The notes under the pieces are model-generated. The model saw only the letters and a list, made by a program, of their open reading frames with translations. It was not told the origin of the DNA and ran no database searches. Positions 28,628 through 43,152 of a DNA stretch of 48,905 nt are shown here, one piece after another. Origin of the DNA: Halanaerobiales bacterium (GTDB lineage: Bacteria; Bacillota; Halanaerobiia; B1SED10-174). Location: assembly GCA_003551905.1 (NCBI GenBank), contig PUNT01000198.1, positions 1-48,905 on the forward strand, read 5' to 3'. The translations under genes were made by a program, and so were the position numbers. Each line of letters starts with the position of its first letter. The first letter of the stretch is position 1.

Positions 28628-28810
28628 TCCTCTGTCCTTTTACCTGAGAGATTACCTTTAAGGCTGCCCCGTCGGTGCCAGCTTAAAAGCTGGAACTCTC
28701 CAGAGTCCTGTCCAGAAACGGTCCTGAAACCTGAGCGTTTCTTTAGAGGTTGCCAACCACTAAATTACGCCTTCGGTGCTAAAAAAAGCTCTCCCGTCCC
28801 TTTCATCCAG
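28628..28810 (-). promoter_or_regulatory. Tandem glycine riboswitch
   Basis: Minus strand has leader GGATGAA, aptamer 1 GGGAGAG...CACCGAAGGCG...CGCTCAGG...GGACC, and aptamer 2 CTCTGGAGAG...CACCGACGGGG...CTCTCAGG..AAAGGACAGAG, directly upstream of gcvT. Confidence 0.93.
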
Positions 28811-39078: not shown

Positions 39079-39099
39079 AAAAAAAGGCCCCAAGGCCTT
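39079..39099 (-). terminator. Intrinsic terminator overlapping the stop of the RadC-like gene
   Basis: Minus strand AAGGCC-TTGG-GGCCTT followed by a T-run. Confidence 0.7.
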
Positions 39100-39835
39100 A
39101 TAGTAAGTTTAACTCATCGAAGCTAAAATAACCACCTTTATGAATAACCACATGATCCAGCACTTCTACTCCCAGTATTTCGCCAGCTTTCACCAAGCGT
39201 TTGGTCCGGAGAATATCTTTTTTATTGGGATGACTCTGATAGCCATTGAAGTTTTGGGCTAGAATCAATGCAGTTTCACCTTTCATTACAATAGGCATCC
39301 TGAAAACAACCTGTGGTTCAAAAGAGATAGGCTGTTTTGTGCCATCTCCGTATATTTCCCAGGTAAGGAGATGATTTTCTTCATCAACAAGTAGTACCAT
39401 CAGACGTCGGGAATCAAAGCTATTGTATTTCAAAAACAGGTTGCAAACATCCTGTGGTTGCTTTAGAATCTGCCCTTGATCCTCTACCAGCACTTTTCTT
39501 TCCATAGAACAGAGGGTGAGGAACTCTTTAACAGAAACAATTTTTTTCAACTGATCGTGAAAATCAATAATGTCATTAGTACTGATATTAGGCTCCCGCT
39601 GAACCAGCATAATCTCTTCTGGAGTTAGTTCTGGATGGGAAGAGTAATCTGTGGACTGTTTTTTTTGAAAGGGGTTCTGGCTTAATAACTGGTACTCCTT
39701 CCTATGACAGGAGGAGCATTCAAAAGTTACAAACGTTGTTCCAGCATATTTGCCAATATTTTGGTCAAAAGTTCCTACCCCGAGAATATCTTTTTCCCGT
39801 ATCTGTGCGCCACACTGCGAGCAAAAAATTTTCAA
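39098..39835 (-). CDS. Zn-ribbon + degenerate RadC-like JAB-domain protein
   Basis: N-terminal CSQC...CSSC. The C-terminus LILAQNFNG...PNKKDILRTKRLVKAGEILGVEVLDHVVI...YFSF resembles RadC but lacks HNHPSG. GGGGGAGG RBS with TTG start. Confidence 0.75.
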   Translation of the reverse strand: MKIFCSQCGAQIREKDILGVGTFDQNIGKYAGTTFVTFECSSCHRKEYQLLSQNPFQKKQSTDYSSHPELTPEEIMLVQREPNISTNDIIDFHDQLKKIVSVKEFLTLCSMERKVLVEDQGQILKQPQDVCNLFLKYNSFDSRRLMVLLVDEENHLLTWEIYGDGTKQPISFEPQVVFRMPIVMKGETALILAQNFNGYQSHPNKKDILRTKRLVKAGEILGVEVLDHVVIHKGGYFSFDELNLL

Positions 39836-39939: not shown

Positions 39940-41223
39940 TTAACCCTTTATCAATCGTTTTGCCCTGATATGCACTTCCTGTTTTACCTCTTCTACATCA
40001 ATAGTTCTGAACACCCCTTTTTCATACAAGATCTTTCCATTAACTATTGTAAATGACACATCACTCCCTTTTCCACTGTAGACCATATGAGCAATGGGGT
40101 CAAAAGTGGGAGTAAAGTGGGGTTTATCCATATCTACAAGTATTAGATCAGCTTTCATCCCTTTTTTCAGCATCCCAACATCTTTTAAGCCAAGTATATC
40201 CGCTCCTGTACTCGTAGCCATTGCCAGCACTTCATTTGCCGGCAAAACCTCAGCTCTATTTACAGCTAGTTTCTGTAAAAGGGCTCCAGCCTTCATCTCA
40301 AAAAACATATCCAGGGAGTTATTGCTGCCTGGCCCATCAGTGCCAAACCCTACCTTCACTCCCAATCTGCTCAGCTCAGCCACAGGGGCAGTGCCACTGG
40401 CCAGTTTCATATTGCTCTGGGGATTGTAGGCAACTCCAACACCTTTCTCTTTCAGAATATGCATATCCTCAGAAGACAGGTGAACACAGTGAGCAGCAAG
40501 TGTGGGATGGTTAAAAACACCCAGATCATTTGCCCATTCTATTGGTGTCTTGCCATAATTTTTCTCAATCTCTTCTATTTCATTTCGGGTTTCAGCAAGA
40601 TGTATGTGCAGTGGCAATTGATGTTTTTCTGCTTTATCAAGAACCTTTTTCATAAATGGCGGTGGACAAGTATAAGGAGCATGAGGTGCCAGCATGGTAC
40701 TGATGCGTCCATCAGCTTCACCTCGCCAGTTAACAGCAAAATCAACTGACTGGGCTAATTTCTCATTAACACCGCTCCCCAGGCCAATCATACCAGTTGA
40801 GAGAACTGCCCTGATCCCGCTCTCTTTTACTGCTTCTGCAGCTCTGTGCATCATGAAATACATATCAGCAAAAGTAGTTGTTCCGCTGGCCAGCATCTCA
40901 CTGATTCCCAGCATAGTTCCCCAGTAAATATCATCCGCTGTAAGCCTGGCCTCCAGAGGCCAGATGTAATCATTAAGCCAGATCATCAGAGGTCTATCAT
41001 CTGCATAACCTCTGGTAAATGTCATCCCAGCATGTGTGTGACAGTTAATAAGTCCCGGCAAGGCCAAAAGCCTATTACCATCAATTATCTCATCAGGCTT
41101 CCATAAATCAGGTAAACTGCCACTACCACAATGAATAATGGTTCCATCTTCAATGGCAATCAACCCGTTACCAATAAATTCTTTTCCATTAAAAATATCG
41201 GCATCTTTTACAAGTATTTTCAC
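39940..41223 (-). CDS. mtaD: 5-methylthioadenosine/S-adenosylhomocysteine deaminase
   Basis: PGLINCHTH, ADMYF, PHAPYT, HIHLAET, AAHCVH, SNMKLASG and GTDGPGSNN. Start corrected to GTG 41223 after AGGAGG. Confidence 0.88.
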   Translation of the reverse strand: MKILVKDADIFNGKEFIGNGLIAIEDGTIIHCGSGSLPDLWKPDEIIDGNRLLALPGLINCHTHAGMTFTRGYADDRPLMIWLNDYIWPLEARLTADDIYWGTMLGISEMLASGTTTFADMYFMMHRAAEAVKESGIRAVLSTGMIGLGSGVNEKLAQSVDFAVNWRGEADGRISTMLAPHAPYTCPPPFMKKVLDKAEKHQLPLHIHLAETRNEIEEIEKNYGKTPIEWANDLGVFNHPTLAAHCVHLSSEDMHILKEKGVGVAYNPQSNMKLASGTAPVAELSRLGVKVGFGTDGPGSNNSLDMFFEMKAGALLQKLAVNRAEVLPANEVLAMATSTGADILGLKDVGMLKKGMKADLILVDMDKPHFTPTFDPIAHMVYSGKGSDVSFTIVNGKILYEKGVFRTIDVEEVKQEVHIRAKRLIKG

Positions 41224-41330
41224 CTTATCCCTCCTGTTAGCCTTCCTTCTATAATAATTTATTTCTGTAATAATCTTTTTACTCCTCTTAAGACCGGCTT
41301 TCTTTGCAAATAATATTCTGAATCTTTTTG

Positions 41331-41360
41331 TTGACTTCATGGAGCTAAATGTGCTATAAT
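41331..41360 (+). promoter_or_regulatory. Sigma-A promoter (TTGACT-N18-TATAAT with extended -10 TG)
   Basis: TTGACT at 41331-41336 and TGcTATAAT at 41352-41360; predicted TSS about 41367, just before the riboswitch. Confidence 0.8.
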
Positions 41361-41373
41361 TTAAAAAAACAAA

Positions 41374-41468
41374 TCTCTGATAAAGGCAAACCTGTTGAAA
41401 AACAGGGACGCAAAGCTACGGGCCTACGGTCAGAAATTCTGGCTAGGGTGGTCGAGCTGCCGGGGAGA
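41374..41468 (+). promoter_or_regulatory. c-di-GMP-I (GEMM-I) riboswitch aptamer
   Basis: AAAGGCAAACCTGTT-GAAA-AACAGGGACGCAAAGCTACGGGCCTA...GAGCTGCCG: P2 with GAAA tetraloop, GGGACGCAAAGC junction and closing GCCG. TCTCTG (41374-79) can pair with CGGGGA (41461-66). G at the position equivalent to Vc2 G20. Confidence 0.92.
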
Positions 41469-41477
41469 AATAGACTT

Positions 41478-41519
41478 TAAGCCTATTTCTCACGGTGTGG
41501 GATATAGGCTTATTTATTT
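41478..41519 (+). terminator. Riboswitch expression-platform terminator
   Basis: TAAGCCTAT-t-TCTCAC-GGT-GTGGGA-t-ATAGGCTTA followed by TTTATTT. Competes with the antiterminator GAGAAATAG (41465-73)/CTATTTCTC (41483-91). Confidence 0.8.
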
Positions 41520-41597
41520 GCAAGGTTTTAGTAAAAGCAAAATTCCTTCTTATCAATCCTCCTTACTACTCAAGCCCCTTCGTGGGGGCTTTTTTTT
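41520..41597 (+). ncRNA. Candidate riboswitch-controlled small RNA domain
   Basis: No RBS-supported ORF; tracts AATTCCTTCTTA and AATCCTCCTTAC followed by an intrinsic terminator. Confidence 0.5.
41572..41597 (+). terminator. Intrinsic terminator, plus-strand polarity
   Basis: AAGCCCCTT-CGT-GGGGGCTT then a T-run; the U-tract exists only on the + strand. Confidence 0.85.
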
Positions 41598-43152
41598 ATC
41601 CAATTATTGATTTTACATCAGCAAAACTACTTTTACCCTTTAGAAAAGTGATTATCTTTTTCTTTTCCAGATCAGAAAAATATTGCTCATTAAAGATGTA
41701 TTCAGAACATCTCTTTTTTAAAGTGGACGCATTGCCTTTCACATCACCTCGTCTAATACTGGCTAAGAGCTGCAAATACTTTGAAAGTATTAGATCTGGA
41801 CTCCAGTCTTTATTGCCTAAAGCTATCCCCGGTAGAAATTCACAGAATTGTCTTTCCCTGTTTATTATTTTTCTTATCCTCTTTGGGTTGCCTATAATAT
41901 CTGCCAAAAGGACACCAGGTTCTTTCTCCACCCCTTCTTTTGCATTATATGCAGAGAAAAGGAATACATAGGGATGATAAAATAAATTTCTTAATTTTAA
42001 ATTTTTTATATAATAAAAAAGATCTTCATATGAAAGGAAATTCTTTTTTTCCATAAGCAAACGATAGCAGATTTCCCCTAAAATTGACGGTAATTTTTCC
42101 TCTATTCGGGCCAATAATACTGAACGGTTCAATTCTTTTCTTAAATCAAAGTATATTGATTTATTACCAGCAAAATTCTCCATAAGCAGCTCTTGCAGTG
42201 AACGCTTTGGCAGTCTATGAGGGAAATTATATATTAAATGTTTCCGTATCTCCCTGTAGGAGGTTACTTTTTTGTCCTGCAGAAACAGACCTATTTCTCT
42301 AATTATTGAATTTTCAATATCTAAATTATTCATCTCTTCCAATCTCTTCAATGAACCATAAACTCTGCTTGTACCTCCTCTGGAAAAGACACAAAAAATA
42401 TAATTTCCCCAGATTTCATATATTTCCCGACTTTCACTAAAACGCCAACCCTGCCTGGCTCCCTCTTGAAACAAGGTTCCCAGGAATATATCAGCATCCT
42501 GAACTAAAAAAACCAATTTGCCACCTATTATTAAATATTTGCTGTATAAACTGAATATTTTTGTTGCAAACTTTTCTAATTTTATTCTGGCACCATAATT
42601 ATCTGCAGGACATAGATCAGTCAGCAAAACCATTATCATATTTGCTTTTTTCTTTGCACTATCCTCCAGATTACTTCCATATACAGGAGTCTCCCCCTTA
42701 ATGAGAAATTCCTTATGCAGTTTTTCTGCTTTTTCATCTATACTCACTTCCCTTGTCAGTTCATCGTGATGGAGAGCTTCCAGTTGAGAAGAATTTTTCT
42801 TTCTCCTGTTCAGAGAAGGGGCCCCCTCCAGTACCCCCTGCCCTGTAAGCAACTGAAAAGCTCTCCAACTTTGAGATTCTTCCTTTTGATCTATGTCTTC
42901 ATTATAAACATCTAAAAGTCGTCTATAAAAACGCGGACGAGGTTCAAAATAGTTTAATTTAATATATTTAATTTGTTCATCCCAAAAAAGTGGCAACAAA
43001 CTGCAATTCTGTATATAAACCAGGTCTCCAGAAGTTGCCTTTTCTTTTATATAATCAGATATTTCTCCCAAAAGGAAAATCTCTTCATTGGCAAGTTCTT
43101 CAGGCAAAAAACTTAATTTTCTAGACCATTTTTTAGCAAAAGGCAACTCCAT
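41596..43152 (-). CDS. Hypothetical 518-aa protein, possibly a degenerate SAM-methyltransferase-like fold
   Basis: Long ORF with GAGGAGG RBS and its own promoter. The central segment weakly resembles a class I MTase core. Confidence 0.7.
   Translation of the reverse strand: MELPFAKKWSRKLSFLPEELANEEIFLLGEISDYIKEKATSGDLVYIQNCSLLPLFWDEQIKYIKLNYFEPRPRFYRRLLDVYNEDIDQKEESQSWRAFQLLTGQGVLEGAPSLNRRKKNSSQLEALHHDELTREVSIDEKAEKLHKEFLIKGETPVYGSNLEDSAKKKANMIMVLLTDLCPADNYGARIKLEKFATKIFSLYSKYLIIGGKLVFLVQDADIFLGTLFQEGARQGWRFSESREIYEIWGNYIFCVFSRGGTSRVYGSLKRLEEMNNLDIENSIIREIGLFLQDKKVTSYREIRKHLIYNFPHRLPKRSLQELLMENFAGNKSIYFDLRKELNRSVLLARIEEKLPSILGEICYRLLMEKKNFLSYEDLFYYIKNLKLRNLFYHPYVFLFSAYNAKEGVEKEPGVLLADIIGNPKRIRKIINRERQFCEFLPGIALGNKDWSPDLILSKYLQLLASIRRGDVKGNASTLKKRCSEYIFNEQYFSDLEKKKIITFLKGKSSFADVKSIIG

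Follow-up and report, generated by a model that had tools for sequence, protein, structure and literature searches.

A conserved c-di-GMP-I riboswitch unit without a protein gene in Halanaerobiales, a candidate source of a gated anti-Shine-Dalgarno-like RNA

Riboswitches for c-di-GMP (cyclic diguanosine monophosphate) are usually interpreted as acting in cis on individual genes, and orphan copies, that is, those with no gene behind them, have been left unexplained or judged possibly non-functional. Of the 12 class I (c-di-GMP-I) switches of C. difficile, 5 have no detected coding sequence downstream, and the authors suggest that these are non-functional or have functions other than in cis (PMC6200980); in a second report, antitoxin RNAs are the products of two prophage class I switches, and one switch is classed as an orphan (PMC11477304). 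Given these examples, the premise that c-di-GMP-I switches always precede open reading frames (ORFs) is too strong; the initial annotation of the locus described here had stated that they normally do so. The merRNA of Bdellovibrio bacteriovorus is 445 nucleotides (nt) long and massively expressed, and a role as a sponge has been proposed for it (PMC3627812); Bc1, a class I switch of the Bacillus cereus group, is followed by two tandem intrinsic terminators 28 base pairs apart (PMC11218506). Among RNAs of other kinds, EutX (Enterococcus) and Rli55 (Listeria) are non-coding RNAs (ncRNAs) gated by B12 riboswitches, and a 2026 review of small RNA (sRNA) biogenesis lists sRNAs derived from S-adenosylmethionine and B12 riboswitches, the term c-di-GMP being absent from its available text (PMC13501541); RsaE and RoxS are base-pairing sRNAs of Firmicutes with C-rich seeds (available text of PMC6158497 and PMC8216469). 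In the literature, supplements being outside our search, we found no description of a c-di-GMP switch that gates a trans-acting RNA of the anti-Shine-Dalgarno (anti-SD) type. A candidate for such an RNA is the subject of this report: a c-di-GMP-I riboswitch unit at positions 41331-41597 (+) of a 48,905-nt stretch of DNA (hereafter, the window; contig PUNT01000198.1) from a Halanaerobiales bacterium, whose assembly (G000) consists of 286 contigs and is 93.6% complete.

The initial annotation had described this unit as a promoter, an aptamer, a first terminator (T1), an interval of about 55 nt (about 50 nt by our count) and a second terminator (T2), and all of these are where it placed them. The sigma-A type promoter (41331-41360, +; TTGACT, an 18-nt spacer and a TG-extended TATAAT, with 11 of 12 consensus positions matched) is the best of five promoter-like sites that a scan identified in 40900-42100; because this number is no higher than in shuffled sequences (3.9 ± 2.0), the assignment rests on the quality of the match and on its conservation, TTGAC, TG and TATAAT being kept in 6/6 orthologous units in the alignment. 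Transcription is predicted to start near 41367, so RNAs of ~150 nt and ~230 nt would end at T1 and T2, respectively. The aptamer (GEMM-I; 41375-41464, +) matches RF01051 over its full length (model positions 1-87 of 87) with 80.4 bits against a gathering cut-off of 35 (E 2.5e-14), so a search with the Rfam c-di-GMP-I model bears out its identification by the initial annotation; the 5' strand of its P1 helix, UCUCU(G), lies at 41374-41379. T1 (41478-41519, +) is a 15-pair hairpin (41478-41512) followed by UUAUUUAUUU. A simple terminator scan did not call it because its stem contains an internal mismatch and its U tract is interrupted; it is, however, the dominant hairpin of the minimum free energy fold (-19.2 kcal/mol folded alone) and is present in the RNAalifold consensus. 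Between P1 and T1 lies a predicted antiterminator hairpin (41459-41496, +), the 5' arm of which (CCGG..GAGAAAUAG) overlaps the P1 3' strand and the 3' arm of which (CUAUUUCUC.CGG) overlaps the T1 5' arm. Read-through past T1 would add ~78 nt: a spacer (41520-41541, +), a 27-nt CU-rich core with two CCU(C/U)C blocks (ATTCCTTCTTATCAATCCTCCTTACTA; 41542-41568, +), and T2 (41572-41597, +; AAGCCCC-UUCG-GGGGCUU followed by U8), a strong intrinsic terminator that the scan called with eight pairs, five of them G-C, in a hairpin at 41572-41591 before T8. The scanned region contains three terminator-like sites, compared with 1.0 ± 1.1 in shuffled sequences. At the level of sequence, then, the unit has both its own promoter and a Rho-independent terminator, as is the case for trans-acting base-pairing sRNAs.

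The unit is conserved, and its most conserved part is the one that only the read-through RNA would contain. When 61 genomes, those of G000 and 60 relatives, were searched at the DNA level, matches extended past T1 in 5/5 genomes of a sister genus (g3); in all five g3 species the unit has no ORF, keeps the order promoter-aptamer-T1-core-T2, and lies upstream of and divergent from mtaD, with radC beyond mtaD in the two g3 loci that reach that far. The interval upstream of mtaD is where the initial annotation had proposed to look for recurrence of the whole layout, and promoter, aptamer, T1, spacer and T2 recur there in each of the five genomes. As in the window, the g3 units face a convergent gene, but a different one, which encodes a 174-amino acid (aa) protein that appears, from its translation, to be pgsA-like and which has its own terminator ~150 nt away. 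When the six units are aligned, TTGAC, TG-TATAAT, the aptamer, T1, the 27-nt block and T2 are conserved, and the proportion of invariant columns is 47/90 (52%) in the aptamer, 27/55 in the antiterminator/T1 platform, 3/22 (14%) in the spacer, 25/27 (93%) in the core (27/27 within g3) and 15/29 in T2, the hairpin of which is retained in g3 despite its changed sequence. The MtaD proteins of the window and g3 are 61-64% identical, and identity at the four-fold degenerate mtaD sites is 36-64% among the g3 genomes and 29-45% when the window is compared with g3, these sites being saturated between the genera; the spacer, with 23-32% identity between the window and g3, is similarly low, so unconstrained sequence has decayed while the unit has not. 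This comparison argues that the ORF-less unit is under selection. It also fits the proposal of the initial annotation that the regulated product is the RNA itself, since the segment specific to read-through is the most constrained. In the g3 loci (L025-L029), a second C-rich motif (GAYCCCCTCCTRAYC) is conserved ~60-110 nt past T2; in G002 (L025), at least, it is enclosed by a long inverted repeat. The window lacks such a motif, since the convergent gene there lies right against T2.

An ORF with an SD site and a conserved frame was found on neither strand of the unit, in the window or in the five g3 genomes, so the statement of the initial annotation that no ORF with a ribosome-binding site follows the switch is upheld. 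Open frames through the units differ in start, length and frame, and most have no SD site; a hidden ORF was rejected as an explanation because starts and frames are not shared, SD sites are mostly absent, and the core has no variation of the synonymous type. The usual position of a c-di-GMP-I switch, in the 5' leader of the protein gene that it controls, is therefore not what is found here: nothing SD-supported or conserved precedes the convergent gene. We also considered a type I toxin/antitoxin arrangement like that of RCd11 and RCd12, the antitoxin RNAs of C. difficile, and rejected it, because no opposite-strand toxin ORF is conserved: a 37-aa minus-strand ORF in the window is not hydrophobic and has no conserved g3 counterpart, and no opposite-strand ORF recurs in g3 with a shared start, length or frame. 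With its full-length aptamer match and no credible ORF, the switch is complete and self-contained and has no protein gene behind it, as the initial annotation held. It is the only such copy among the four c-di-GMP-I aptamers in the G000 assembly; the other three precede same-strand ORFs that, from their translations, appear to encode a subtilisin-like lipoprotein, a PAS-GGDEF protein and a 146-aa secreted protein. The only other Rfam matches in the window are two distant glycine aptamers (55.6 and 49.7 bits), which lie side by side at 28630-28806 (-) as a tandem glycine riboswitch.

The platform between aptamer and T1 has the design expected of a switch. The orthologous g3 aptamers score 70.6-83 bits with RF01051. 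The RNAalifold consensus of the six units recovers P1, P2, P3, T1 and T2 with compensatory changes in 11/51 pairs; for the aptamer, 27 pairs are predicted, with compensatory changes in P1 (columns 30-112), P2 (43-56, 44-55 and 47-52) and P3 (68-106 and 74-99), as judged from six related sequences. In all six units the antiterminator shares nucleotides, in silico, with both the P1 3' strand, CCGG(GG)AGA, which doubles as its 5' arm, and the T1 5' arm. Predicted antiterminator energies (-16.2 kcal/mol in the window; -13.4, -13.6, -17.1 and -17.2 kcal/mol in four g3 genomes) are comparable to those of T1 (-19.2 kcal/mol as given above for the window; -13.5 to -14.8 kcal/mol in g3) in 5/6 units, and in the remaining genome (G003) the base of the P1 3' strand has changed from C to U, with a matching G-to-A change in the P1 5' strand (columns 30-112). 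The hairpin is assigned its role in the switch from its mutual exclusivity with P1 and T1, and the assignment is a model. In c-di-GMP-I riboswitches, ligand binding stabilizes P1; c-di-GMP should, then, disfavor the antiterminator and allow T1 to terminate, which would make the unit an OFF switch. With regard to the choice between c-di-GMP and 3'3'-cGAMP as the ligand, the residue that we take to be the counterpart of Vc2 G20 is a G, the first of an invariant GGC. A near-identical T1 follows paralogous g3 switches that precede real ORFs, which indicates that the platform is a working cassette in this lineage. In g3, two complete c-di-GMP-I units, each with its own promoter and T1, are located ~730 nt apart (L008 1480-2480, G002:C79; likewise L006, L007 and L009), the first followed by a small ORF whose N-terminus resembles a signal peptide, the second by a membrane protein; their promoter/aptamer/T1 segments are 74-80% identical to that of the window unit, compared with 68-73% for the syntenic g3 copies.

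The core offers a clue to what the longer RNA might do. It is unpaired in the RNAalifold consensus, and the read-through module has no conserved hairpins of its own. Its second CCU(C/U)C block resembles the 3' tail of 16S ribosomal RNA (rRNA). Searches of G000 and of G001-G005, incomplete metagenome-assembled genomes, gave no match to the 16S rRNA family (RF00177), so two complete genomes of the same class were used for the comparison in place of genomes of the family. In these class relatives the 16S 3' end and its flank read GGATCACCTCCTTTCTAAGG; the g3 sequence TATCAATCCTCCTTTCTAAG, which comprises the end of the core and the first bases of T2, shares the 13-mer CCTCCTTTCTAAG with it, and the window shares CCTCCTT with the 16S 3' end. 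With this shared sequence, the module looks like an anti-SD mimic. It belongs to no known sRNA family as judged by Rfam, for which matches in 41300-41700, other than the aptamer, are below threshold (the best has 20.8 bits against a cut-off of 55).

We propose that the unit encodes an independently transcribed, riboswitch-gated, c-di-GMP-OFF ncRNA, the long form of which carries an anti-SD-like module; we give the proposal a probability of about 0.5. In the predicted mechanism, transcription from the sigma-A promoter would produce the aptamer, the P1 3' strand of which is shared with the antiterminator, the other arm of which is in turn shared with T1. When c-di-GMP is bound, P1 would form and block the antiterminator, T1 would form, and an RNA of ~150 nt would be released; when c-di-GMP is low, the antiterminator would form and polymerase would continue for ~78 nt to T2, producing an RNA of ~230 nt with the 27-nt CU-rich segment. 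This segment would most likely act in trans on messenger RNAs (mRNAs), pairing with the purine-rich regions at which they bind ribosomes, so that its target mRNAs would be masked when c-di-GMP is low. A more specific version of the proposal is tentative, and we would not give it even odds: that the second messenger is read by a riboswitch with a trans-acting RNA as its sole output, that this RNA mimics the 16S tail on chosen SD regions, of which that of fliS is the best candidate, and that it arose by loss of an ORF that fused a leader with an anti-SD element of a 3' untranslated region (UTR).

The points that weigh against the proposal concern its narrow phylogenetic base, the folding of single sequences, the targets, and the gene content of an outgroup. 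The case for function draws on six related species, all of one family and five of one genus. Within the collections searched (102 class genomes and two public collections), the core is confined to these six species-level genomes: with a 22-nt core pattern and up to three mismatches, the only zero-mismatch sites in the 102 class genomes are in the six known genomes and the three-mismatch sites look unrelated; an exact scan of one representative genome per prokaryote species returned five stretches, which are the five g3 contigs; and a scan of a metagenome collection returned four stretches that are identical or ≥98% identical to known units. A covariance model of the core and T2 (R1) recovers the six units at 75-104 bits; the next best matches (≤37 bits) are generic terminators with AT-rich leaders, none of them near a c-di-GMP-I aptamer. 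In folds of single sequences, the core is predicted to be open to a moderate degree only, with a mean unpaired probability of 0.43-0.76, compared with 0.39-0.44 for the rest of the RNA, and the antiterminator of G003 is weak (-5.1 kcal/mol).

The targets were sought among 2002 start regions in G000, each with an SD site and an ORF of ≥80 aa, for which the mean pairing energy with the core is -14.2 ± 3.7 kcal/mol. The best partner (rank 1/2002) is the start region of a 132-aa gene (C117:4097), predicted to form 22 pairs from the SD site to AUG+6 with -31.1 kcal/mol; the gene encodes FliS, according to Pfam, and follows those for FliD and FlaG (flaG-fliD-fliS row, C117 1747-4495, L095). The two window-specific bases of the core, U 41549 (a U/C position) and A 41566 (an A/U position), are both in Watson-Crick pairs in the fliS duplex, and shuffled cores reach the fliS energy anywhere in the set in 1/68 cases. 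However, fliS starts of four g3 genomes pair with their own cores with only -14.1 to -21.8 kcal/mol, which in the G000 distribution would correspond to ranks 137, 277, 998 and 1220 of 2002, and no fliS was found in G003 with the query used. Repression of fliS at low c-di-GMP would also run contrary to the usual association of low c-di-GMP with motility. We regard fliS as a lead, with roughly one chance in five of being a target. The gene next to the unit, mtaD, was rejected as a target: the pairing of the core with the mtaD start of the same genome is not above that of shuffled sequences in 4/6 genomes and ranks 272/2002 in G000. Complementarity to a target that is conserved across species was thus not found for the two genes examined, fliS and mtaD; with fliS top in G000 only and mtaD unspecific, the idea that the RNA itself is the product is weakened to this extent.

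Other candidates were set aside. The longest exact complementarity to the core outside the locus in G000 is 13 nt; 12-mer complements at ribosome-binding sites precede ORFs of 149, 249 and 181 aa with no obvious link to c-di-GMP. A duplex scan with a query of 52 nt returned looped duplexes of implausible length and was dropped, and the second-ranked site (C270:3536) is internal and in frame, in an acidic (Glu) run of a longer ORF, and is not a start region. A three-mismatch site that recurs in g3 (L058 and L059) belongs to the leader that precedes a membrane-protein-like ORF; its pairing with the g3 core is predicted at only -18.9 kcal/mol. This leader, near position 1500 in both loci (G006:C2 and G004:C146), is itself conserved, with AAGAAGGATTGTTTAGAAGGAA located ~30-50 nt upstream of the ORF, and resembles the complement of the core.

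That no conserved mRNA target was found is compatible with two explanations in which the RNA does not pair with mRNAs. In the first, the aptamer is the product: the RNA would buffer or sequester c-di-GMP, and the 3' segment would be kept for stability, processing or protein binding. The absence of an ORF and the full conservation of the aptamer agree with this, as does the precedent of merRNA, a c-di-GMP-riboswitch RNA with, in the accessible account, no conserved downstream ORF (PMC3627812); a sponge, however, requires neither a regulated terminator with a conserved antiterminator nor a read-through segment that is more conserved than the aptamer, and the proposal for merRNA rested on massive expression. 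We consider a sponge unlikely, although it is the best placed of the alternatives. In the second, the long form would sequester a protein through the CU-rich module, in the manner of EutX and Rli55. The invariance of 27/27 core positions within g3, which exceeds what a short pairing seed usually needs, would be accounted for, and riboswitch-gated sequestering RNAs are listed for B12 riboswitches in the available text of the 2026 review (PMC13501541). On the other hand, the unit has beside it neither a conserved candidate for the bound protein nor a conserved linked gene, the downstream neighbors differing between genera; the module has no conserved hairpins, and its likeness to the 16S tail points to pairing with RNA. 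The chance of protein sequestration is, in our judgment, small.

The genes that flank the unit bear on a third explanation, in which the switch controls antisense or convergent transcription, by read-through of T2, into the neighboring minus-strand gene. This gene (41596-43152, -) encodes a 518-aa protein that belongs to no Pfam family; it is convergent with the unit, and the U tract of T2 overlaps its stop codon. The unit of an outgroup genome (G001, described below) also abuts a homolog (29% identity over 292 aa, E 6e-44), which occupies the equivalent convergent position, and riboswitch-controlled antisense RNAs are known (as cited in the available text of PMC3627812). However, T2 is strong, faces the plus strand and is conserved, and the five g3 genomes retain both the core and T2 although their downstream gene is a different one with a terminator of its own; antisense control is, we think, improbable. 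No good minus-strand terminator follows the 518-aa gene. The divergent neighbor (39940-41226, -) is the mtaD-like gene, a member of Amidohydro_1 according to Pfam, with its start most likely at a GTG at 41226; a RadC-like protein and a DegV protein are encoded further out. The RadC-like JAB protein (39098-39835, -) is extended at its N-terminus by a segment with two CxxC pairs (CSQCG ... CSSCH) and has matches at E ≤ 1e-20 in 34/102 class genomes.

The outgroup contains an ORF where the unit has none. The RadC proteins of the window and g3 are 73-74% identical and that of G001 is 62-65% identical to either, which makes genus g2, to which G001 belongs, the outgroup of the family. The order in G001 (switch unit at L099 1501-2135, G001:C1) is radC (-), a c-di-GMP-I aptamer (+, 79.5 bits), an antiterminator/T1 platform of the same design, an ORF of 111 aa with a signal-peptide-like N-terminus, AATCCTCCTTAAT with a T8 terminator, and the convergent homolog of the 518-aa gene; AATCCTCCTTAAT stands in the 3' UTR just before the terminator, which itself bears CCUCC. 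The window aligns with G001 from the leader through T1 and ~30 nt beyond, and alignment resumes at AATCCTCCTTA and continues through T2 (E 0.003 in a small search). An ORF between the terminators of a relative, the finding that the initial annotation had named as contrary to its proposal, is thus present in G001, although 5/5 g3 relatives have none; the orphan state has, to this extent, a trivial origin. In the simplest reading, the unit in the window corresponds to the G001-like cassette minus a segment of ~420 nt with the ORF, the core spanning the junction, and is probably a retained derivative of gene loss: ORF loss from an ordinary switch-gene cassette would have brought the 5' leader and a 3'-UTR element together, and selection would have kept the product. 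Gain of the ORF in G001 is less likely. Among the 102 class genomes, no homolog of the G001 ORF was found outside G001 (two matches with E 0.003-0.006 contain stop codons), and tblastn found none in G000; outside the family, Rfam matches were obtained in 0/20 radC-centered loci with 1.5-kilobase (kb) flanks and in 0/5 loci that reach at least ~3.9 kb upstream of radC. In G010, from another family of the class (L137, G010:C1:983300-988000), mtaD is in a same-strand row ahead of radC with no Rfam match, the genes before it appearing from their translations to encode methylthioribose-1-phosphate isomerase-like and adenosylhomocysteinase-like proteins; with neither an ORF homolog nor a switch outside the family, and with this gene row, the direction of change cannot be fixed from outside it.

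The syntenic G001 ORF, and the alignment of the window with G001 on both sides of it, are also what would be expected if the unit were a functionless remnant of gene loss that has not yet decayed. The ORF-less state is, however, common to two genera between which the four-fold sites of mtaD are saturated, and in 6/6 genomes a promoter, a high-scoring aptamer, compensated helices and a 93% invariant core persist beside a 14% invariant spacer. Given this conservation in g3, the G001 ORF bears on the origin of the unit and not on its present state, and we regard a mere remnant as quite improbable. Finally, a small protein translated from the frame through the core and T2 is hardly credible: the frame (..IP(P/S)YQSS..) is open in the window and in 4/5 g3 units, but SD sites are mostly missing, start positions differ, just upstream, this frame contains a stop and lacks a start codon in the fifth g3 genome (L027, G006), the frame crosses a terminator hairpin, and the core lacks synonymous-type variation in g3 although four-fold sites elsewhere are only 36-64% identical.

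With orphan c-di-GMP-I switches and riboswitch-controlled ncRNAs already described, and with a relative that has an ORF in the equivalent unit, the locus is less surprising than the initial annotation held; because the read-through module is conserved, the unit is also better supported than a single sequence could show. The unit is, in our view, real and probably functional, and the locus provides comparative evidence that selection keeps a c-di-GMP-I unit without an ORF and is strictest on the segment that only read-through includes. What orphan c-di-GMP switches do can thereby be framed as a concrete hypothesis open to testing in vitro, that of a gated anti-SD RNA. The organisms, which are uncultured, are represented by six related genomes. 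The outgroup genome, in addition, offers a plausible route for the birth of such an RNA, that is, ORF loss that joins a leader to a 3'-UTR element.

The proposed anti-SD RNA shares individual features with each of several known RNAs. Its long form would present a pyrimidine-rich, unpaired motif to G-rich ribosome-binding regions and would have its own promoter and intrinsic terminator, as do RNAs of the kind represented by RsaE, RoxS and the 3'-UTR anti-SD element of icaR; none of these is gated by a riboswitch, and none is related in sequence to the unit (the Rfam search of 41300-41700 gave sub-threshold matches only). In EutX and Rli55, the riboswitch selects between a short, terminated ncRNA and a long one, the active module, a set of protein-binding hairpins, being confined to the latter. 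The unit is predicted to have the same two forms with the module only in the long one; T1 and T2, as predicted elements, are both present and conserved, and the segment between them contains a strongly constrained part, although the ligand and aptamer class differ and an unstructured, anti-SD-like stretch replaces the protein-binding hairpins. Like merRNA, as described in the accessible account, the unit places a c-di-GMP riboswitch in an ncRNA with no conserved downstream ORF in one lineage (PMC3627812); its conserved part, however, lies past the regulated terminator. Like Bc1, it has two terminators, but Bc1 precedes protein genes and was unresponsive to c-di-GMP in the authors' assays (PMC11218506), whereas the transcript of the unit is predicted to end at T2, which no gene follows. 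The closest parallels are the C. difficile orphan switches and RCd11 and RCd12, in which, according to the available texts, a c-di-GMP-I aptamer and terminator platform likewise has no protein gene downstream (PMC6200980, PMC11477304). RCd11 and RCd12 are cis-antisense antitoxins with a second, stronger promoter and a toxin encoded on the opposite strand; the unit in the window has no conserved opposite-strand ORF, the promoter scan found no internal promoter before the CU-rich core, and its read-through product is a short CU-rich segment set between two terminators.

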